NCBI GenBank assembly: GCA_964366905.1
Contig: CAYIVQ010000003.1
Coordinates: 1 to 39,180 of the forward strand
Direction of reading: 5' to 3'
From: an uncultured Candidatus Saccharibacteria bacterium
GTDB taxonomy: Bacteria > Patescibacteriota > Minisyncoccia > GWC2-36-17 > WO2-46-25
DNA: 39,180 bases
The position numbers were made by a program, and so were the translations under genes. Under the pieces are notes generated by a model. It was not told the DNA's origin, ran no database searches, and saw nothing but the letters and a program-made list of their open reading frames with translations. Positions 4,201 to 39,162 of the stretch are shown here, piece after piece; the stretch's first letter is position 1, and each line of letters opens with the position of its first letter.

Positions 4201-4799
4201 TGCCGTTTGTCACGGAACATATCTGGCTGAAGTTTCATAATCAAAGTATACATTTGGAAAATTATCCTCAATCCGGCAAAAAATACATTGATAAAAAGCT
4301 TGGTTATGATATGATAAAAGTTAGAGAAATAGCCGCAATCGCGTTGAAAAAACGCGCTGAAGCGGGTGTAAAAGTCAGACAGCCGTTATCGGAATTACGA
4401 ATCAGGAATGACGAATCAGGAATTAAAAACAAGGAAGATTTGCTGAATATTATAAAAGAAGAGGTGAATGTTAAGAAAGTGTGTTTTGATAAAAAATTAG
4501 AAGATGATGTTTGGCTGGATGCCAATATCACGCCGGAATTAAAAGAAGAAGGCATTATCAGGGATGTTGTCAGAAATATACAGCAATTAAGAAAAGAAGC
4601 TGGATTAACAAGCAAAGATGTCATTTTGATAAAATATTTTGCCGAAGCGGAAGCGGGCAAGACGCTGGCGAAATTTCAAAAACAAATCAGCAAACAAACA
4701 TTAGCAAAGGAAATGATTGCGGTTAAGCGAGATGATTTAACAAAATCAAAGGAGATTGATTTGGAGGGAATAAAAGTCTGGATTCAAATTAACTCTTAG
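1206..4799 (+). CDS. ileS: Isoleucine--tRNA ligase carrying a nested ~205-aa domain insertion
   Basis: Class I motifs are present: PPTANGMPHPGHV (HIGH-type), KMSKS, the CP1 editing region, paired CxxC zinc knuckles (WQCGKCGD and CKKCGAEM) and WFDSG. The start is taken at M31 (1206), because the upstream 30 codons overlap the promoter. Confidence 0.93.
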   Translation: MDNIEKEIKTKSKIALMEEAVLDWWDKNDVFQKSLDKRRKGKPFVFYEGPPTANGMPHPGHVMGRCFKDIFLRYKSMRGYFVERHAGWDTHGLPVEIEVEKQLGIKSKPEIEKFGVAEFNRLCKQSVWKYKDEWEKLTKRIGFWLDMEHPYITYENKYIETLWWVIGQIFKKGLLVQDYKVMHYCVRCGTGLSSHEIAQGYKVVQDKSVYVKFRLKSEANSEKKILKKMRSGFKFDEPDIHEAKEYFLVWTTTPWTLPANVALAVNPKLIYARARKDKEVLILAKDLLKALGDGWEVIEEFSGKELLGEEYHQLFEFLKPEKKAFFVAAGDFVSAQDGTGIVHIAPAYGEDDMQIAREYDLPVLHPVMENGQFEAAIPWQGKFVKNADPEITEDLRNRGLLFKEEIYEHEYPFCWRCGTPILYYARKSWFIKMSKLKQKIIANNKQINWVPAHLKEGRFGEWLLELKDWAFSRDRYWGTPLPIWQCGKCGDTQAVSGIAELSRLSRFKNRYFIMRHGRAVSNERGFVDLSHSDNHVTESGAKDAVKLLKNFKKKFSDLKFDFIISSPVLRARETADIASDFFGIAKSGIFTDPALSEINVGIFDGKSIEEYHRYFASPEEKFFKAPPDGENLNDVKKRVTEFIKKEESKYTGKNILIVSHEYSLWILETALDGLDNSEILERKLGKKGDYISTGEIREIMSGELPLNAEGELDLHKPYIDNIKIGCKKCGAEMDRAPEVTDVWFDSGAMPLAQTGFPFAQISNLKSQISNTYSNVDYKKLIKQIPFPADFICEGVDQTRGWFYTMLAVSTLLETGAPYKNVVSTGHILDKLGKKMSKSKKNYVDPTEIADKYGIDALRWYFFTVNSVGEPKRFDEKDVSDSQRKSVMLLLNIYNFFESYASFSKKEAVLPQQQSLTLLDEWILSRLHETIAVMNIALDEYDAMTASRSLASFLDDFSTWYLRRSRSRFQHPKNKADLNAASAVFQYVFENALKLAAPIMPFVTEHIWLKFHNQSIHLENYPQSGKKYIDKKLGYDMIKVREIAAIALKKRAEAGVKVRQPLSELRIRNDESGIKNKEDLLNIIKEEVNVKKVCFDKKLEDDVWLDANITPELKEEGIIRDVVRNIQQLRKEAGLTSKDVILIKYFAEAEAGKTLAKFQKQISKQTLAKEMIAVKRDDLTKSKEIDLEGIKVWIQINS
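2721..3335 (+). other. Histidine-phosphatase (PGAM/SixA/CobC superfamily) domain inserted between the two zinc-knuckle halves of IleRS
   Basis: YFIMRHGRAVSNE (RHG motif), SSPVLRARETA, LSEINVGIFDG, PPDGENLNDVKKRV and ILIVSHEYSL follow the full motif order of the histidine phosphatase superfamily. The flanking IleRS sequence resumes at LDLHKPYID. Confidence 0.8.
3483..3517 (+). repeat. Heptanucleotide tandem repeat (caaatct x4 plus caaatac) inside the ileS coding sequence
   Basis: Direct reading gives caaatct at 3483, 3490, 3497 and 3504, and caaatac at 3511. It encodes QISNLKSQISNT in a variable linker after WFDSG. Confidence 0.95.
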
Positions 4800-13771: not shown

Positions 13772-14653
13772 ATGGAAGAACAAAAAATAAAAGTGGCAAT
13801 TATTGAAGACGAAGAAGTGCTTTTGAATGTTTTGGAAAACAAGCTAAAGAAAGAAGGTTTTGACGTTGTCACCGCTCTTGATGGGGAAATCGGAGTCAAA
13901 GTCGTTCGAGAAAGCTTGCCTGATATAATTCTTTTGGATATTATCATGCCGAAAGTAAACGGATTTGAAGTTTTGGCCCAATTAAATCAAGATCCTGTTT
14001 TGGCGAAAATTCCGGTTATCATTATTTCCAATTCCGGCCAGCCGGTGGAAATAGACAAGGCGCTGTCTTTGGGAGCAAAAGATTATTTGGTAAAGGCGGA
14101 ATTTGATCCGCAAGAAGTTATAGAAAAGATAAAAAAACAACTTTCATTGCTCGCTTCTCCGCAGTCTGCCGTTCAAAGCGCGAACAGTGATGGCAACCCG
14201 CGAACAGAGAGAGCGGAGCAGTCACCGTATGATGGCAGCTTGAGTCCGAAAATCAATGCCGATATAAATCCAAGTTTATTCACCATTCTTTTGGTTGAAG
14301 ATGACAATTTTTTGAGAGATTTGATATCACAAAAGCTTAAAAGAGAAGGTTTTAATGTTATAGAAGCGATTGACGGCGAGGATGGCGTGAAAAAAACCGG
14401 CGAACACAAGCCGCATCTTATTTTGTTGGATCTTATTTTGCCCGGCATGGATGGTTTTGAAGTTTTGCGGGACATTCATGGCAATGAAAATTTTAAAAAA
14501 ACTCCGGTGATCATACTGTCTAATCTCGGCCAGAAAGATGACATAGAAAAAGGCATGCGGTTCGGAGCAGTTGATTATTTGGTAAAAGCTCACAACACCC
14601 CGGGTGAAATAGTGGATAAAGTGAAGGAGGTATTGGGAAAAACTTACTCATGA
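13772..14653 (+). CDS. Orphan response regulator with two tandem receiver (REC) domains and no output domain
   Basis: Two CheY-like units (IIEDEE...LLDIIMPKVNGFEVL...AKDYLVKA and LVEDDN...LLDLILPGMDGFEVL...AVDYLVKA) are joined by a linker that contains the 42-nt repeat. Confidence 0.85.
   Translation: MEEQKIKVAIIEDEEVLLNVLENKLKKEGFDVVTALDGEIGVKVVRESLPDIILLDIIMPKVNGFEVLAQLNQDPVLAKIPVIIISNSGQPVEIDKALSLGAKDYLVKAEFDPQEVIEKIKKQLSLLASPQSAVQSANSDGNPRTERAEQSPYDGSLSPKINADINPSLFTILLVEDDNFLRDLISQKLKREGFNVIEAIDGEDGVKKTGEHKPHLILLDLILPGMDGFEVLRDIHGNENFKKTPVIILSNLGQKDDIEKGMRFGAVDYLVKAHNTPGEIVDKVKEVLGKTYS
14192..14233 (+). repeat. In-frame GC-rich 42-nt repeat unit (GNPRTERAEQSPYD) in the inter-REC linker
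   Basis: GGCAACCCGCGAACAGAGAGAGCGGAGCAGTCACCGTATGAT is 38/42 identical to the unit at 26659-26700. Confidence 0.9.
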
Positions 14654-22938: not shown

Positions 22939-23976
22939 ATGGAATTTTTACTTAATTCGATAATTAAAAAAGAAGAGTGGAACCACTTTGTTTTGGAAAA
23001 CGGCGGGAGCTTTTTGCAGTCGTGGGAGTGGGGGAGTTTTCAGCAGAAATCCGGCAAGGAAGTTGCGAGGGTTTGCGTTCAAGAAGATGGGAGAATTTTG
23101 CTCACGGCGCAGATTATGCGTTACAGCCTGCCTTTCGGCAAAAGTTACATTTATATTCCTTATGGGCCGATGGTTTCAAAGAACGCTGATAATCCGCCAG
23201 AGCTGATTGATTTTTTTGTCAGTGAATTGCGGCAGTCAAATATTATTGGCAAAGGAATAATTTTTTTAAAAATTGAACCGGATGAAAATTTTACCCCTGA
23301 TTTAACCGTCGTTGGGCTTAACAAATCGGATAAAGATATACAGGCGAGAGAAACTCTTATCTTAGACATATCAAAACCGGAAGAGGAATTGCTGGCGCAA
23401 ATGAAACAAAAAACAAGATATAATATCAATCTTGCCCGGCGGCACGGCGTAGAGATAATCAGCATTGACGACGAGAAAAAAGCGAAAGAAACATTTTTAT
23501 CTCTTTTATTTGAGACGGCAAAAAGAAATAATTTCAGGACTCATCCGGAAAAATATTATGTTGAAATGACGGAAATGTTTCTCAATAATCGCGCGGCAGG
23601 AGAAATTTTCTCCGAGCGGCTGTTTTTCGCGAGATATCAGGGGAAAATTATAACGGCGGCTCTCATCGGTTTTTTCGGCGGCAGAGCGACGTATCTCCAT
23701 GGGGGCTCTTCAGATGAATATAAAAATATTATGGCTCCGAACCTTTTGCATTGGGAAATAATCAAGGCTTCAAAGCACCTTGGGTTTTCCGAATATGATT
23801 TTTGGGGCATTGCCACCGATAAAACCGATTCCAGACAAAAGCAAAAATGGGAAGGATTTTCCAGATTTAAAATGGGATTTGGCGGACGAATCGTAGAATA
23901 TCAAGGAGCGTATGATTTGGCGTTTGATAAAATATGGTATAATGTGTACAGAATAATAAGGCGAATTATGAATTAA
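22939..23976 (+). CDS. FemAB/FemX family peptidoglycan aminoacyl-transferase (aminoacyl-tRNA dependent)
   Basis: FLQSWEWGSFQ, TRYNINLARRHG and YLHGGSSDEY/NLLHWE motifs are typical of lipid II:amino-acid transferases. Confidence 0.8.
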   Translation: MEFLLNSIIKKEEWNHFVLENGGSFLQSWEWGSFQQKSGKEVARVCVQEDGRILLTAQIMRYSLPFGKSYIYIPYGPMVSKNADNPPELIDFFVSELRQSNIIGKGIIFLKIEPDENFTPDLTVVGLNKSDKDIQARETLILDISKPEEELLAQMKQKTRYNINLARRHGVEIISIDDEKKAKETFLSLLFETAKRNNFRTHPEKYYVEMTEMFLNNRAAGEIFSERLFFARYQGKIITAALIGFFGGRATYLHGGSSDEYKNIMAPNLLHWEIIKASKHLGFSEYDFWGIATDKTDSRQKQKWEGFSRFKMGFGGRIVEYQGAYDLAFDKIWYNVYRIIRRIMN

Positions 23977-24027
23977 AAATTATGAATTAAAAATCTTGCA
24001 AAAATGTTTTTCCGTAATTCATAATTT

Positions 24028-25903: not shown

Positions 25904-25987
25904 CAAATAGAAGTAAGATTTATGATTTAATATTTACGAATTTTCTATCATTATTCGTAAATCGTAATTCATAATTCGTGTCCCCCA

Positions 25988-26553: not shown

Positions 26554-27795
26554 ATGAGAAGAATTGTTTTAATTCATTACAATGAAATCGCATTAAAAGG
26601 CCGGAATCGGCCTTTTTTTGAGCGCGCTCTGCTCGGAAATATCAAACGCGCGCTTGCCGGCAACCCGCGAACACAGAGAGCGGAGCAGTCGTCGTATGAC
26701 GGCAACCCGCGAGTCCAGCGAGCGGAGCAGTCACCGCATGATGGTTGCGCTTTTAAAGAAGCGCGGATTATTTTCGGGAGGATTGTGGTGTGGCTTGAAG
26801 CGGATGCCGATGAAAAAGCGATAGCCGAAAAACTTAACAAAGTTTTCGGCATAGCCAATTTTTCTTTTAGCTGGGAGATGCCATCGGAATTTTCAAAAAT
26901 TTCAGATGAAGTGCTTAAGATTTTGAAGGAACAGGAATTTAAAACATTCAGAGTGACTGCCAGACGCGCGGGCGCGGAATTCCCAATGTCCGCGCAGGAA
27001 ATAAATGAAAAACTTGGAGCGTTGATTGTTGAAAAACTGGAGAAAAAAGTTGACTTGAAAAATTATGACCTGAATTGTTATCTGGAAATCGTAGGCAATC
27101 TGGTATTTTTCTATCTTGAGAAAGAAAAAGGGCTGGGCGGTTTGCCGGTTGGCGTGTCGGGGAAAGTCTTATCTCTACTTTCTTCTGGTTTTGATTCGCC
27201 GATAGCTTCTTGGCAATTGATGCGGAGGGGGTGCCGGGTTGATTTTGTTCACTTTCATAGCTATCCGCAGACATCCAAAGAGTCGCAGGAGAATGTTAAA
27301 GAATTGACGAAAATATTAAATCAATATCAGGCCAGTTCAAAACTTTTTCTTATTCCATTTTTGGATATTCAGAAAGAAATCTCCGCCAAATCGGAAGACG
27401 CGAGTCAGCGCGTGGTTTTGTATCGCCGTTTTATGATGCGAATTGCCGAAAAAATCGCAGAGCGCGAAAGGTGCGGAGCGTTGGTGACAGGTGATTCGCT
27501 CGGGCAAGTCGCTTCGCAGACATTGGAAAATATCGGTGTCATTTCTCAAGCGACTAATATGCCGATTTTCCGCCCGCTCATCGGCACGAATAAAGACGAC
27601 ATTATAGACACAACTAAAAAAATCGGCACATACGAAATTTCCTCACACCCCTACGACGACTGCTGTTCGCTATTTTTACCGGAACACCCCGAAACACGGG
27701 CCAAACTGGAAGTGATTTTGGAGATTGAGAAAAATTTGGATGTTGAGAAACTAATCAGCGAGGCGATTGGCAGAATGGAGATACTTGAATTATGA
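26554..27795 (+). CDS. thiI: tRNA 4-thiouridine synthase ThiI (no rhodanese domain), carrying two in-frame 42-nt repeat units near the N-terminus
   Basis: YNEIALKGRNRPFFE N-terminus, a THUMP region, the PP-loop LLSSGFDSP, and GDSLGQVASQT. Confidence 0.88.
   Translation: MRRIVLIHYNEIALKGRNRPFFERALLGNIKRALAGNPRTQRAEQSSYDGNPRVQRAEQSPHDGCAFKEARIIFGRIVVWLEADADEKAIAEKLNKVFGIANFSFSWEMPSEFSKISDEVLKILKEQEFKTFRVTARRAGAEFPMSAQEINEKLGALIVEKLEKKVDLKNYDLNCYLEIVGNLVFFYLEKEKGLGGLPVGVSGKVLSLLSSGFDSPIASWQLMRRGCRVDFVHFHSYPQTSKESQENVKELTKILNQYQASSKLFLIPFLDIQKEISAKSEDASQRVVLYRRFMMRIAEKIAERERCGALVTGDSLGQVASQTLENIGVISQATNMPIFRPLIGTNKDDIIDTTKKIGTYEISSHPYDDCCSLFLPEHPETRAKLEVILEIEKNLDVEKLISEAIGRMEILEL
26659..26742 (+). 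repeat. Two tandem in-frame 42-nt GC-rich repeat units (GNPRTQRAEQSSYD and GNPRVQRAEQSPHD) inside thiI
   Basis: The units at 26659-26700 and 26701-26742 share GGCAACCCGCGA...GAGCGGAGCAGTC...ATGA with each other and with 14192-14233. Confidence 0.9.
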
Positions 27796-27835
27796 ATCAA
27801 GAATAATGAATCATGAATGGCAAATCCCGCTCAAT

Positions 27836-27887
27836 CATTATCTTTGTCTCCAGTTGTACGATCGTACAACTGGAGACAAAGATAATG
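27836..27887. repeat. 52-bp perfect palindrome (core GTACGATCGTAC)
   Basis: cattatctttgtctccagttgtacga | tcgtacaactggagacaaagataatg. The two halves were checked base by base as exact reverse complements. Confidence 0.95.
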
Positions 27888-27911: not shown

Positions 27912-27953
27912 TACTTATTACACTTGTGACGATCGTCACAAGTGTAATAAGTA
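27912..27953. repeat. 42-bp perfect palindrome (core TGTGACGATCGTCACA), the same family as 38349-38386 and 39043-39076
   Basis: tacttattacacttgtgacga | tcgtcacaagtgtaataagta. The central 32 bp are identical to the copy at 39044-39075. Confidence 0.95.
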
Positions 27954-31998: not shown

Positions 31999-32026
31999 AC
32001 GAGGACAGTAACGTCCTCGTTTTATT
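31999..32026 (+). terminator. Intrinsic terminator
   Basis: acgaggac agtaac gtcctcgt is followed by TTTTATTT. Confidence 0.75.
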
Positions 32027-32040
32027 TCTCCGTTACTTTT

Positions 32041-32062
32041 TTATTCTACGGCCGTAGAATAA
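32041..32062. repeat. 22-bp perfect palindrome (core ACGGCCGT), related to 33068-33101
   Basis: ttattctacgg | ccgtagaataa. It shares the flank aagatagt with the 33-kb copy. Confidence 0.9.
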
Positions 32063-32080
32063 GATAGTGAAACAGAATGG

Positions 32081-32166
32081 TTGTGGATAAGGCGGGGTTT
32101 ACAAACCGCTTCGGGCGGTGGCATGATAATGGCAAGTTTAAAATTAGGAGTTTAGAGTGTAAAATT
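32081..32166 (+). promoter_or_regulatory. Repeated promoter/leader module, copy 1 (DnaA-box 9-mer, -35 TTTACA, -10 CATGAT, A-rich leader)
   Basis: TTGTGGATAAGGCGGGGTTTACAAA...CATGATAAT...GTTTAGAGTGTAAAATTATG aligns with the copies at 33128 and 39079. Confidence 0.6.
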
Positions 32167-32394: not shown

Positions 32395-32443
32395 TGATAG
32401 TCTGGATTTCTTATTTTTCAGTAATGAATGAGTTATAGCATGA

Positions 32444-32540
32444 CAATTCTTTTACCATATAAGTATCTCCTAATTTATATCCCAGCTTAGCGTAATATCC
32501 TCGCACGCCGACGCCGGAGATGACGGCGATTTTTTTGGGC
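32444..32540 (-). pseudogene. Duplicated remnant of the 3' end of elp3 (last ~30 codons)
   Basis: About 87% nucleotide identity to 33818-33915. It encodes [31 protein letters not shown], against [31 protein letters not shown] in the intact gene. Confidence 0.85.
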
Positions 32541-33000: not shown

Positions 33001-33067
33001 CTCCGTTTCTTTTTTATTGAAGTATTATTAACTCTCCATTCAGGCAGAGTTTTTTTGTATGATTTTC

Positions 33068-33101
33068 ACTATCTTATCCGACGGCCGTCGGATAAGATAG
33101 T
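33068..33101. repeat. 34-bp perfect palindrome (core ACGGCCGT)
   Basis: actatcttatccgacgg | ccgtcggataagatagt. Confidence 0.95.
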
Positions 33102-33127
33102 AAGTGACAAAGTTGATAGCAAATCAG

Positions 33128-33199
33128 TTGTGGATAACAGCTTATTTACAAAATGCATCGGGGGGGGGTATGATACAAGCAAGTTTAAAGTTAAAAATT
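33128..33199 (+). promoter_or_regulatory. Repeated promoter/leader module, copy 2 (DnaA-box 9-mer, TTTACA, G9 tract, TATGAT)
   Basis: TTGTGGATAA...TTTACA (33145-33150), an 18-nt spacer ending in G9 (33160-33168), TATGAT (33169-33174), then GTTTAAAGTTAAAAATTATG. Confidence 0.6.
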
Positions 33200-33754
33200 A
33201 TGAAAGAAAAATTTGACCCAAAAGACGAGCAGTATAAAGAAGTGGCGGACTTGCCACCGGAGCATCAAGAAGAATTTATGGATGTTAAAGGTGGTGGATT
33301 TGTTTCGCGGGAAGTAATTATTAATCCAGAAAGAGCGAAAAAAGAAGCACATAAAGAGTATAAAGAGAAAAAGACGGAACAGGAGATAGAAGAAAAAAAG
33401 AAGATGTTATTGCCTATTATTAAACGTTTCCGCGCTGGTCTTGAAAAGTTGGATTTAATTGATCATGCGGGTTGGTTTGATAATCATGAAGGGGAGCCTC
33501 ATAAAAGAGTTCGGGTATTATTAAAAGATGGTTCAGAATTTAAGGGATATCACGGTTATGATTTGTTTGAGAGCGAAGAAAATGGATACGAAGCATTTTA
33601 TGTTATTGGCAGCCATGTTGCCTGGGCTAATACGGGTGGTATAGTGGTGTTTGAGGATGGTCGTCGAGACATTCCAATACAGGATATTAAAAAAATTACT
33701 AGACTGGATCACAATACATCTATTGAATTTGAAGAGAATGAATCTTTGGGATAA
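33200..33754 (+). CDS. Hypothetical protein (184 aa), with a charged N-terminal half and a beta-rich C-terminal half
   Basis: The start is set at the ATG ending the conserved leader (MKEKFDPKDEQYKE...). No family was recognised. Confidence 0.5.
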   Translation: MKEKFDPKDEQYKEVADLPPEHQEEFMDVKGGGFVSREVIINPERAKKEAHKEYKEKKTEQEIEEKKKMLLPIIKRFRAGLEKLDLIDHAGWFDNHEGEPHKRVRVLLKDGSEFKGYHGYDLFESEENGYEAFYVIGSHVAWANTGGIVVFEDGRRDIPIQDIKKITRLDHNTSIEFEENESLG

Positions 33755-33814: not shown

Positions 33815-35377
33815 TTACAACTCCTTCACCATATAACTATCTCTCAATTTGTATCCCAGTTTTGCGTAATATCCTCGTACGCCGACGCCGGAGATAACGG
33901 CAATTTTTTTCGTGCCGAATTCTTTTTTAGCGATTTTTTCTGCCTCTTTAACTAATTTTTTGCCTAATCCACGATGTTGGCTATATTTAGAATCACGGTC
34001 TCTAAACATTGGGGCGACTTCGCCATAGGTGTGGACTTCGCGTATAATCACTATGTTTGGAGGTTGAACCTCCAAACATATGCGGAGGCGGAGGAGGGCG
34101 ACGAGTTTGTCGTTTTTAATATCTTCGTAAGTCAGGAATATTTCTTTTCCGTCGGAAGCATCGTAATTAATTCTTTTTAGCTGTATATTCTTAGCTGTTA
34201 GTGCCTGGTTTCCGATTTCTCGACAGCGGATGCATCTGCATTTTAACCCCTCCAGTTTCATTTCCTGATGGATGGTTTGGCGTAGGTTGCTCGTTTTGCT
34301 TCCGACTTCTATGCTTTCCGCCGGGATATCGCGAATGACTCGGACGATGCGACAATATTCAGGAACGAATTGCTTTACTTTCTTGATTATGTTTATTAAT
34401 TGTCGGTCGGTGTAAGGTTTATATTTTCCGGCTTTCCATTGGTCGTAAAGTTTCGTGCCTTTGATTACCATACAAGGATAAATTTTTAACATATCCGGTT
34501 GGAAATCAGGATTGATAAAAAGCTCTTTGAACATCGCGATATCTTTTTTGGGAGTGGAGCCGGGAAGGTTGAGCATCATATGATAGTTGATTTTAAATCC
34601 AGCGTCTTTTAGTATTTTGGTGGCGCGGATGGTGGCGTCGATGTGATGACCGCGGTTGGATGTATCAAGAATGTCGTTATATAAGCTTTGCACGCCCAAC
34701 TCCACGCGCGTGCACCCGTATTCGCGCATTTTTTTGATTTCTTCTTCCGCCACCCAATCGGGGCGAGTTTCTAAAGTGAGTCCGACCAGTTTGTGTTTGG
34801 CGTAGCGCGTATTGTAAGATTGAGCTGATTTAAGCGAGTACGCAGAACGGCCATTGAGAGCTTCGTATAATTTTTGGATATACCATTCTTGATAGTCGCG
34901 CGGAATAGCTGACCATGTGCCGCCGATAACGATGATTTCTATTTTATCAACGGAATGTCCTTGAGCTTTGAGCGATTCAAGGCGTGAGCGTACTTGCCGA
35001 TATGGATCAAATTCGTTAGCTACAGCGCGCATTACCGCCGGCTCGTTGGAGAGGTAGCTTTTGGGCATATTTTTTTCTGTCGGGCAATAGGCGCATTTCC
35101 CCGGACAGCCCCAGTCCTTGGTAAGCACGGTGATAGAGGCGATGCCGGACAGCGTCCGGACTTTGCGTTTTTTGATGATTTGGGCGAGGGTAGCGTTTGC
35201 CTTTATCTTTCCCGTTTTTAATAGTTTCTGATACACTGAAATCAAGTTGATATTAGAAGGCAATCCGTGTATATTTAATTTCCGCATATGTCCGCGTTTA
35301 ATCCTGCCGAAGCTTTGTTCATTCAGGTTTTTTACTTTTGAAGCTTCAAAAATTATTTTTTCTAAAATTTTATTCAT
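33815..35377 (-). CDS. elp3: Elp3-like tRNA uridine(34) modification enzyme (radical SAM + GNAT acetyltransferase)
   Basis: The radical-SAM cluster motif GCPGKCAYCP, the TIM-barrel region (VELGVQS, YHMMLNLPG) and the C-terminal GNAT motif QHRGLGKKLVKEAEKIAK occur in the Elp3 domain order, in a 520-aa protein. Confidence 0.85.
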   Translation of the reverse strand: MNKILEKIIFEASKVKNLNEQSFGRIKRGHMRKLNIHGLPSNINLISVYQKLLKTGKIKANATLAQIIKKRKVRTLSGIASITVLTKDWGCPGKCAYCPTEKNMPKSYLSNEPAVMRAVANEFDPYRQVRSRLESLKAQGHSVDKIEIIVIGGTWSAIPRDYQEWYIQKLYEALNGRSAYSLKSAQSYNTRYAKHKLVGLTLETRPDWVAEEEIKKMREYGCTRVELGVQSLYNDILDTSNRGHHIDATIRATKILKDAGFKINYHMMLNLPGSTPKKDIAMFKELFINPDFQPDMLKIYPCMVIKGTKLYDQWKAGKYKPYTDRQLINIIKKVKQFVPEYCRIVRVIRDIPAESIEVGSKTSNLRQTIHQEMKLEGLKCRCIRCREIGNQALTAKNIQLKRINYDASDGKEIFLTYEDIKNDKLVALLRLRICLEVQPPNIVIIREVHTYGEVAPMFRDRDSKYSQHRGLGKKLVKEAEKIAKKEFGTKKIAVISGVGVRGYYAKLGYKLRDSYMVKEL

Positions 35378-38348: not shown

Positions 38349-38386
38349 ATGATTACATGTGTGACGATCGTCACACATGTAATCAT
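38349..38386. repeat. 38-bp perfect palindrome (core TGTGACGATCGTCACA) just after a -10-like element and ~30 nt upstream of the regulator gene; candidate operator
   Basis: atgattacatgtgtgacga | tcgtcacacatgtaatcat, preceded by TTGATT...TATGAT-like promoter hexamers. Confidence 0.9.
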
Positions 38387-38415
38387 TAAGGATTAATTAT
38401 TATTTAAGAAGTAGT

Positions 38416-39018: not shown

Positions 39019-39042
39019 TCTATTTTAAAGTTTCTTTTTTTT

Positions 39043-39076
39043 GATTACACTTGTGACGATCGTCACAAGTGTAATC
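39043..39076. repeat. 34-bp perfect palindrome (core TGTGACGATCGTCACA) downstream of the regulator gene
   Basis: gattacacttgtgacga | tcgtcacaagtgtaatc. Confidence 0.95.
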
Positions 39077-39078
39077 GT

Positions 39079-39162
39079 TTGTGGATAAGGCGGGGTTTAC
39101 AAATTGCGTGGGGGGGGGGTATGATAGGGGTAGGTTTAGAGTTAAAAATTAAAATAAAAAAT
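39079..39162 (+). promoter_or_regulatory. Repeated promoter/leader module, copy 3 (DnaA-box 9-mer, TTTACA, G10 tract, TATGAT)
   Basis: TTGTGGATAAGGCGGGGTTTACA (39079-39101), an 18-nt spacer ending in G10 (39110-39119), TATGAT (39120-39125), then GTTTAGAGTTAAAAATT...ATG. Confidence 0.6.

Follow-up and report, generated by a model that had tools for sequence, protein, structure and literature searches.

How has one GC-rich stretch of 42 nucleotides (nt) come to lie, in frame, inside two unrelated genes of the same contig? The question is raised by contig CAYIVQ010000003.1 of an uncultured Candidatus Saccharibacteria bacterium (assembly GCA_964366905.1), of which positions 1 to 39,180 of the forward strand, here called the window, were analysed; its source environment is Hainich groundwater. 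Two adjoining copies of the 42-nt unit lie within the gene for the tRNA 4-thiouridine synthase ThiI, and a third lies in the linker of a tandem receiver-domain (REC-REC) response regulator. Comparison with alleles that lack the unit, and with its copies in other genomes, indicates that it is probably a non-autonomous selfish in-frame insertion element of 42 bp (14 codons) that is widespread in Patescibacteria. A preliminary description, made from the sequence alone, was aware of no such element for this kind of genome, and a literature search likewise found no published description of the 42-bp unit. The relevant features of the window are as follows.

26554..27795, plus strand: host gene 1, tRNA 4-thiouridine synthase ThiI, 413 amino acids (aa); Pfam ThiI_fer, THUMP and ThiI, and TIGR00342 at 2e-114
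26656..26745, plus strand: insertion site in ThiI, GCC/84 nt/GGT, from comparison with the closest relatives
26659..26700, plus strand: unit 1 of the ThiI tandem pair, 41/42 versus the family consensus, loop variant ACACAGA, peptide GNPRTQRAEQSSYD
26701..26742, plus strand: unit 2 of the ThiI tandem pair, 34/42 versus the consensus and the most diverged copy, peptide GNPRVQRAEQSPHD
13772..14653, plus strand: host gene 2, REC-REC response regulator, 293 aa, from domain matches and alignment
14187..14237, plus strand: insertion site in the response regulator, GTGAT/unit/GGCA; the empty allele reads GTGAT/GGTA, which resembles the end-to-start junction of the unit, ATGAC/GGCA
14192..14233, plus strand: single unit of the inter-domain linker, 37/42 versus the consensus, peptide GNPRTERAEQSPYD
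26665..26683, 26707..26725 and 14198..14216, plus strand: predicted short stem CCGC (unit positions 7-10) / GCGG (22-25) with an 11-nt loop, from folding

The preliminary description of these copies stands in all its particulars. The two adjoining units add 28 aa to a loop of ThiI, as coordinates, profile alignments and a structural model agree, and the third unit, identical to unit 1 at 38 of 42 positions, was located in the REC linker by alignment and receiver-domain matches. All three share one frame, each starting at codon phase 0 of its host open reading frame (ORF), and their GC content of 60-67% is far above that of the 100-nt flanks (38-45%) and of the whole window (41%). Units 1 and 2 agree at 34 positions and units 2 and 3 at 36. 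A degenerate 32-nt pattern with 27 fixed bases matches exactly these three places in the window, where none is expected from 100 dinucleotide-preserving shuffles. Unit 1 is identical to the unit in a filled REC allele from elsewhere (L161) and to a unit in the MetRS gene of another Hainich metagenome-assembled genome (MAG). As had also been noted, the unit is not palindromic: its stem has only 4-5 bp (CCGC N11 GCGG), and its folding energy is no better than that of shuffled sequence on either strand (z-scores -1.4 to +0.9). Terminal inverted repeats are absent: the end ...TATGAC is not an inverted copy of the start GGCAAC..., and the analysis reported no inverted repeat within the unit. The tetranucleotide CGTC occurs inside it at positions 32-35 and 35-38, but does not adjoin a palindrome. 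Frame +2 contains a TGA, and the three antisense frames are all open. No Rfam family matches the unit with E-values up to 10 allowed, and no protein family matches the 14-aa peptide.

The gain of the sequence can be seen in ThiI. The insert comprises residues 36-63 of the protein, which follow helix 19-35 and precede strand 67-73 in the N-terminal ferredoxin-like domain; the ThiI alignments to Pfam and TIGRFAM break cleanly there, after profile position 37 and before position 38. The possibility that the segment is conserved at this place in ThiI orthologues is contradicted by the alignment, in which the 28 residues are absent from 23 of 23 orthologues, including nine that are 85-88% identical over the aligned length; the orthologues read ...RALA/DCAFK, the window protein ...RALA/28 aa/GCAFK. 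At the DNA level two of the three closest relatives read GCC/GAT TGC and the third GCT/ATC TGT, where the window has GCC/84 nt/GGT TGC. All three lack exactly 84 nt, a clean gain, and the orthologue and allele alignments proposed in the preliminary description thus define the boundaries of the insert, with no target duplication in ThiI beyond G/GG. The proposed modelling agrees with the predicted location: in the AlphaFold2 model (mean pLDDT 85.4, pTM 0.84) residues 38-62 are the sole long segment with pLDDT below 50, forming coil between helix 19-35 and strand 67-73, and the homology to the solved Bacillus anthracis ThiI (PDB 2C5S) is interrupted at the same place. The insert is, according to the model, a disordered surface loop. 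A loop in ThiI and an inter-domain linker in the response regulator are positions where harm should be least.

In RNA, a metatranscriptome contig continues from upstream ThiI sequence into unit 1. No joint skipping the insert was found in RNA or DNA contigs, the material being one metatranscriptome and assembled contigs, with DNA carry-over possible. On the basis of assembled contigs, there is no sign that the unit is excised from RNA.

The ThiI genes of other Patescibacteria (P0021/P0024, P0096 and P0120, the last at L165:501-1790) contain different in-frame inserts at a second loop, near residue 125 of the window protein. The insert of P0120 is palindromic, has about 120 nt and termini GTCATTGCGAG...CTCGCAATGAC, encodes ...SVIARS...LPSVARND, and resembles the Rickettsia palindromic elements (RPEs). 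It was considered as a relative of the 42-mer and rejected, as a different palindromic element without significant similarity. These genomes therefore seem to be generally prone to in-frame insertion of repeats. Forty nt 3' of the ThiI stop codon of the window, at 27836-27887, lies a perfect inverted repeat of 26+26 nt without spacer (CATTATCTTTGTCTCCAGTTGTACGA / TCGTACAACTGGAGACAAAGATAATG).

Verified empty alleles cover three sites: ThiI, the response regulator and a non-coding repeat. In the response regulator the insert comprises residues 141-154. Proteins 95-98% identical to that of the window lack exactly these 14 residues (...NSD/GSLSPK), and one other protein, P0123, carries them. Three empty alleles read AAC AGT GAT GGT AGT, exactly 42 nt fewer, and two filled alleles read ...GAT (GGC AAC...TAT GAY) GGC AGT, with the unit in brackets. 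Compared along the full gene length, filled L161 and empty L162 are 97.6% identical, whereas L161 is only about 90% identical to the filled allele of the window, so that presence or absence of the unit does not follow the gene tree. This means repeated gain at one site, transfer by recombination, or repeated loss.

The third site lies outside genes. A non-coding repeat that normally reads GAAAATTC/GGAAAGG holds the 42-mer exactly at that point in five genomes:

L008:4020-4258, minus strand: repeat copy with the 42-mer
L014:2878-3146, plus strand: repeat copy with the 42-mer
L015:1265-1474, plus strand: repeat copy with the 42-mer
L023:6104-6288, minus strand: repeat copy with the 42-mer
L031:4725-4910, plus strand: repeat copy with the 42-mer

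Normal repeat copies read straight through this point, and the unit is thus an insertion here too. The non-coding copies of the unit share the orientation of local transcription. A scan with the 5' part of the surrounding stretch of about 200 nt returned at least 120 metagenome loci (L041-L160), none of which holds the 42-mer; a conserved non-coding RNA encoded by this stretch was accordingly rejected as the source gene of the unit. The stretch was also rejected as the inverted ends of an insertion sequence, since its pairs enclose different, unrelated genes and no transposase. A tmRNA tag was likewise discarded as the origin of the unit, the tag of the window tmRNA (ANLFTQAKRAVASLFAPSFAFARV) being unrelated, and no tmRNA adjoins the intergenic unit copies according to ARAGORN and Rfam.

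The search for further copies proposed in the preliminary description was carried out on one genome per bacterial and archaeal species, with the pattern AACCCGCGA-N7-GAGCGGAGCAG, which fixes 20 of the 42 unit positions (4-12 and 20-30); about 8 kb around each match was examined. The scan gave 35 loci, of which 33 are real; the remaining two (Bryocella, Bryobacterales) are chance matches in which the rest of the unit is missing. The real loci belong to Patescibacteria MAGs of independent projects (Azambacteria, Giovannonibacteria, Zambryskibacteria, Liptonbacteria, Staskawiczbacteria, Saccharibacteria and Hainich bins), the single exception being a 1.5-kb contig binned as Gammaproteobacteria. 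Thus dozens of further copies exist in other genes and genomes, and the similarity seen in the window is not confined to it. One 50%-GC Azambacteria MAG, JACQDT01, holds about 25 copies, and many other MAGs hold one. The consensus of the family is GGCAACCCGCGAACGCAGAGAGCGGAGCAGTCGTCGTATGAC. Among the positions left free by the pattern, those of the loop (13-19) are the most variable and 31-42 vary little. Copies from class-level lineages of Patescibacteria have nearly identical nucleotide sequences, synonymous sites included. A profile search within the 8-kb loci yielded few diverged copies and no heavily decayed ones, and a peptide search with a 42-aa triple-repeat query matched only two short proteins. 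A short-loop variant in L057 is a degenerate copy beside a partial unit and is uninformative on the stem.

In four DNA runs and one RNA run from groundwater sites, contigs are 100-200 times deeper over the unit than over the ThiI or REC flanks. Many contigs with other flanks join or leave the shared ThiI stretch, at 26659/60 to 26703-06; in REC, the part shared with contigs from other loci extends from 14188/14192-14193 up to 14232-14237. Depth and foreign flanks together imply that the unit is present at very many loci in these communities. There is no copy of it in 2.9 million viral contigs, and a phage was for this reason rejected as its vector.

Host ORFs include those for MetRS (at least 4 units), a P-type ATPase, an MFS transporter, ComM, DnaX, RsmH, MnmA, HPF, SecA, RecG (two separate pairs), phosphoglycerate mutase, ValRS, MltG, a PEBP protein and an MBL-fold protein; they are housekeeping genes, unrelated and without a common function. 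All clearly coding copies are inserted in the sense strand and in frame 0, giving a hydrophilic peptide like that of unit 1. Two copies are in frame +1 (ATRERRERSSRRM) near N-termini and may precede the true start codons. The TGA-containing frame +2 is never used, and neither are the open antisense frames; an apparent antisense insertion at L003 was rejected, the host being a frameshifted flavoprotein gene with the unit in sense frame 0. The hexamer GACGGC, the core of the unit's own junction, occurs in Azambacteria ORFs 39 times in sense frame 0, 19 times in the other sense phases together and 20 times in antisense. Its availability would predict about 50-60% of insertions in frame 0 sense and not the roughly 30 of 30 found, so that selection on the peptide or a strand-specific mechanism must add to it.

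Tandem pairs are common, and their members mostly carry one and the same loop variant, rare variants included, which points to local duplication. Two homologous 609-aa genes of one Saccharibacteria MAG (L022 and L032) are 57% identical in DNA and carry units that agree at 40 of 42 positions, at the same position of the gene; no other 42-nt window of these genes reaches 40/42 identity. Together with the REC alleles and the lack of heavily decayed copies, this indicates recurrent insertion at preferred sites with turnover, homogenisation through gene conversion, or constraint on the nucleotide sequence. Identical junctions were found in independent assemblies and studies (L036, L037, Logan contigs and MAGs of several groups).

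The MetRS gene of the Hainich MAG JBBUDR01 (L012:6780-7967, minus strand) contains an array of at least 4 units that is interrupted by a run of N. The copy number of such arrays in short-read assemblies is probably unreliable.

Flank statistics were calculated over 37 arrays and a target consensus over 29 independent sites, with the following result.

Right flank equal to the first 2 or more nt of the unit: 84% observed, 5% at random sites
Right flank equal to the first 3 or more nt of the unit: 51% observed, 1.5% at random sites
Right flank equal to the first 5 or more nt of the unit: 24% observed, 0.1% at random sites
Left flank equal to the last 3 or more nt of the unit: 32% observed, 1% at random sites

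The reconstructed target consensus, caTGAC/GGCAA, equals the end-to-start junction of the unit, TATGAC/GGCAAC, and the base directly after the insert is G at 29 of 29 sites. Targets match this junction at a mean of 8.45 of 16 positions, compared with 3.96 +/- 1.7 at random sites. Most copies have GG or GGC on both sides, with a match of 0-10 nt that mirrors the unit's own junction; (T)GAC precedes about one third of them, and about one third of sites have, directly before the unit, a GAC or GAT codon identical to the last codon of the unit. The verified empty REC site, GTGAT/GGTAG, agrees with this junction-like pattern. Such targets would point to short-homology recombination, or to template switching, with a circular, concatemeric or tandem donor.

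Within the reading of the unit as a selfish insertion element, then, a tentative but serious possibility is that integration takes place through short homology between the target and the closed junction of the unit. New copies would integrate where the target resembles TATGAC/GGCAAC, and the reading frame of the host would always survive, 42 nt being added. Tandem pairs would arise by local duplication or slippage, and selection would purge insertions that, by their frame or orientation, introduce a stop codon or encode a hydrophobic or basic peptide. That the same sites recur and old decayed copies are lacking suggests rapid turnover and recent horizontal spread; copies might be lost via the flanking short repeats and the sites then be filled again. 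Of the two options offered in the preliminary description, the selfish or recombination-spread element is thus favoured by empty and filled alleles that differ by exactly 42 or 84 nt. The other, a peptide module under selection, would be a weak explanation if it stood alone, because synonymous sites are near-identical across class-level lineages and non-coding copies exist; the exclusive use of sense frame 0 means that selection for a tolerated peptide is still needed. In a bolder form of the mechanism, which we regard as unlikely, the unit would be an active minimal mobile element of an undescribed kind, moving as a single-stranded circle or concatemer with the aid of a host or helper HUH nuclease, recombinase or reverse transcriptase into targets like TGAC/GGCAA. 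Its 14 codons and disordered peptide would let it colonise essential genes, and it would cross between classes of Patescibacteria, perhaps via DNA uptake.

Several observations weigh against the selfish-element reading or narrow it. In the 8 kb around the genome matches the unit could not be linked to any transposase, recombinase or reverse transcriptase, no longer element containing it was seen within these loci, and no circular or concatemeric form has been observed. The search pattern fixed positions 4-12 and 20-30, so the constancy of the arms is no independent result, and constancy of the nucleotide sequence among lineages could mean a function of the sequence itself instead of recent spread. 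The availability of the target motif covers only about half of the bias towards frame 0 sense, the remainder being ascribed to selection by inference. The empty REC alleles have GGT where both filled ones have GGC; some bases that adjoin the unit on its right may therefore be copied from the donor, and part of the right-flank homology may be donor sequence. The empty sites in ThiI and in the non-coding repeat share only 1-2 nt with the unit junction, which makes junction homology a preference and not a requirement. The RNA and DNA evidence consists of assembled contigs, in which rare variants are hidden.

The constancy of the sequence could alternatively reflect a selected functional signal in DNA or RNA, for example a DNA-uptake signal of naturally competent, nucleotide-scavenging bacteria or a hairpin that binds protein or RNA. 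Near-identity across class-level lineages would fit such a signal, as would the units of L022 and L032, which are far better conserved than their host gene, the retention of a short stem while the loop varies (the stem positions being fixed by the search pattern) and the orientation of the non-coding copies along local transcription. A signal of this kind is nevertheless improbable. Copy number is erratic, about 25 in one MAG versus one in many; the scan of the whole species-representative collection found only 33 loci, so that most genomes have none; close strains differ in the presence of the unit at a site that is otherwise unchanged; and there is neither an Rfam match nor a significant fold. 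Known DNA-uptake signals have 9-12 nt and arise by point mutation rather than by insertion of 42 nt. An equally small chance is given to the 14-aa peptide being a useful module, such as a flexible linker, docking motif, modification site or degron, under positive selection and disseminated by recombination. In its favour, no frame but sense frame 0 is used, beyond what the target motif predicts, and the peptide is hydrophilic, sits in loops or linkers and is kept in diverged homologues. Yet synonymous positions are conserved as well as the others across distant lineages, non-coding copies and the two frame +1 cases near gene starts exist, the hosts have no function in common, strains 95-98% identical manage without the peptide, and it is predicted to be disordered and matches no protein family.

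If the unit were removed during expression, by translational bypassing as in T4 gene 60 and the 'byp' GC clusters of Magnusiomyces mitochondria or by excision from RNA, host proteins would be unchanged. GC clusters in Magnusiomyces mitochondrial coding regions are indeed bypassed in translation (PMC8811140), and the GAC or GAT that precedes the unit at about one third of sites, matching its last codon, could form a take-off and landing pair. This is very unlikely here: the length of the unit is in every case a multiple of 3 nt and it never lies in the TGA frame, neither of which a bypassed or excised element needs; many sites have no matching codons, including ThiI (GCC before, GAT at the end); and an RNA contig holds the ThiI-unit junction, with no skipping joint in RNA contigs. 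It is scarcely credible, finally, that a high-copy repeat was wrongly stitched into genes during assembly or binning. The repeat does have very high depth in these metagenomes, and contigs frequently end within it, but the junctions are identical in independent assemblies and studies, the host frame is kept on both sides of every coding copy, and the length difference between filled and empty alleles is exactly 42 or 84 nt.

Regarded as a selfish insertion element, the unit invites comparison with other short repeats found inside genes. The preliminary description drew a parallel to RPEs, which holds as an analogy and fails as family membership. As summarised in PMC10969869 after Ogata et al. 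2000, RPEs are selfish elements found in frame in unrelated housekeeping genes and in non-coding DNA; they are palindromic, have about 100-150 bp, fall into several families, are confined to Rickettsia, and encode a conserved peptide that is apparently compatible with folding. The 42-bp unit shares with them in-frame insertion into unrelated functional genes, a conserved peptide, and hosts that are small-genome, host-dependent bacteria. It differs in size (gains of exactly 42 or 84 nt), in its stem of only 4-5 bp as against the long palindromic stem of RPEs, in being nearly unchanged across class-level lineages of Patescibacteria, and in its frequent tandem pairs and its insertion at sites like its own end-to-start junction. 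With its 42 bp, its lack of a palindrome, its bacterial setting and its different host range, the unit belongs neither to the RPE family nor to the mobile GC clusters of yeast mitochondria, the two systems that it would most resemble in the way it works. The latter are short GC-rich sequences that form optional in-frame insertions in var1, with AG or TAG terminal repeats and tandem arrays (PMC8811140). Common to both are a short GC-rich unit in an AT-richer genome, optional and in frame in a protein gene, terminal repeats of 2-3 nt (GG or GGC in the present case), substitutions concentrated in the loop, single and tandem forms, and no transposase of their own. The clusters, however, are clearly palindromic, organellar and mostly intergenic, whereas the unit has a minimal stem and bacterial hosts, and most of the copies found lie inside genes, in one frame.

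Members of the IS200/IS605 group recognise a short target motif 5' of the insertion point, lack terminal inverted repeats and are strand-specific. With elements derived from them, and with REP/RAYT systems, the unit shares size class, the absence of terminal inverted repeats, an apparent lack of a regular target duplication, and strand specificity. REP elements are imperfect palindromes of 20-40 bp with a GTAG or CGTC tag at one end, mainly extragenic and often arranged as inverted dimers (PMC3733652). Some of them are intragenic, and the (T)GAC before about one third of unit copies is reminiscent of a 5' target motif; the unit, however, has neither a significant hairpin nor a tagged palindrome, most of its copies are intragenic, and its multiples are direct tandems, not inverted dimers. 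In the 8 kb around the genome matches it could not be linked to any RAYT or TnpA gene. The lack of terminal inverted repeats separates it from miniature inverted-repeat transposable elements, and from bypass elements it is set apart by matching codons at only about one third of sites and by its in-frame, stop-free sequence. PARCELs are amphipathic repeats of 25 residues that form long tandem tracts in surface proteins or proteins of unknown function (PMC2996958). Like the unit, they are coding repeats whose patchy occurrence hints at horizontal transfer and at shuffling inside genomes; unlike it, they define the protein itself, whereas the unit is an insert of one or two copies in housekeeping enzymes. 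On these comparisons the unit appears to be shorter and simpler than known selfish DNA inside genes.

If this reading is right, the unit would be only the second clear case in bacteria, after Rickettsia, of selfish DNA lying routinely inside functional protein-coding genes, and it would occur in the Candidate Phyla Radiation, a group with genomes that are in other respects regarded as streamlined. Its way of moving may be new, given that the insertion sites mirror its own junction and that inverted repeats are absent. Near-identity across classes of Patescibacteria suggests recent exchange of DNA among these organisms. The unit would also be a concrete source of the loop insertions that make proteins of Patescibacteria look unusual, a natural experiment on the tolerance of essential enzymes for insertions, and a strain-level marker, being present or absent among strains 95-98% identical. 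For metagenome assembly it is a cause of contig breaks and possible copy-number errors.

The non-coding repeat that holds the 42-mer in five genomes is separate from the unit and very abundant in Parcubacteria. It combines a promoter-like TTGAC(T)-N17-TATTCT with a structured part of about 140 nt after it, which has a GCCGCCTGCGGCGGC hairpin, a GGCGGCGGAGCCGC hairpin and the end ...GACAATTTCAAGTTTTTCTTTG. It often forms convergent inverted pairs 0.7-1.2 kb apart that enclose one gene per pair, the enclosed genes being unrelated, and nothing in Rfam matches it. Its possible identities are a small RNA gene, a mobile promoter/terminator cassette and a gene-capturing element.

The window contains other repeats. 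Three intergenic copies of a near-perfect palindrome of 38 nt (TGATTACACTTGTGACGATCGTCACAAGTGTAATCA), mutually 82-100% identical, lie at 27915-27952, 38350-38387 and 39042-39079, and could be an operator, a terminator or a REP-like repeat. Inverted repeats of 48 nt at 32025-32072 and 33064-33111, 81% complementary and each with an internal palindrome (TTCTACGGCCGTAGAA), enclose about 1 kb with a HicB-like/HicA toxin-antitoxin pair (gene calls on L036); this stretch is possibly a small mobile cassette. Three copies of a 66-nt repeat that resembles a promoter, TTTACAAA...GGGGGGGG(T)ATGATA with a ribosome-binding region after it, lie at 32098-32163, 33145-33210 and 39096-39161. Short arrays of 7- or 14-nt repeats (GAATTAT / GAATCAT / GGAATCA) at 4391-4423, 23963-23994, 25914-25979 and 27786-27818 sit at gene ends and intergenic junctions, the ThiI stop region included. 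Of the two copies of a 94-nt direct repeat (87% identical), that at 33817-33910 overlaps the 3' end of the minus-strand ORF 33815-35377, and that at 32443-32536, outside the listed long ORFs, may be a gene fragment or a partial duplication. The tmRNA gene of the window occupies positions 1-309 of the minus strand (Rfam RF00023, 58 bits; no call by ARAGORN), its 3' end being cut by the start of the window.

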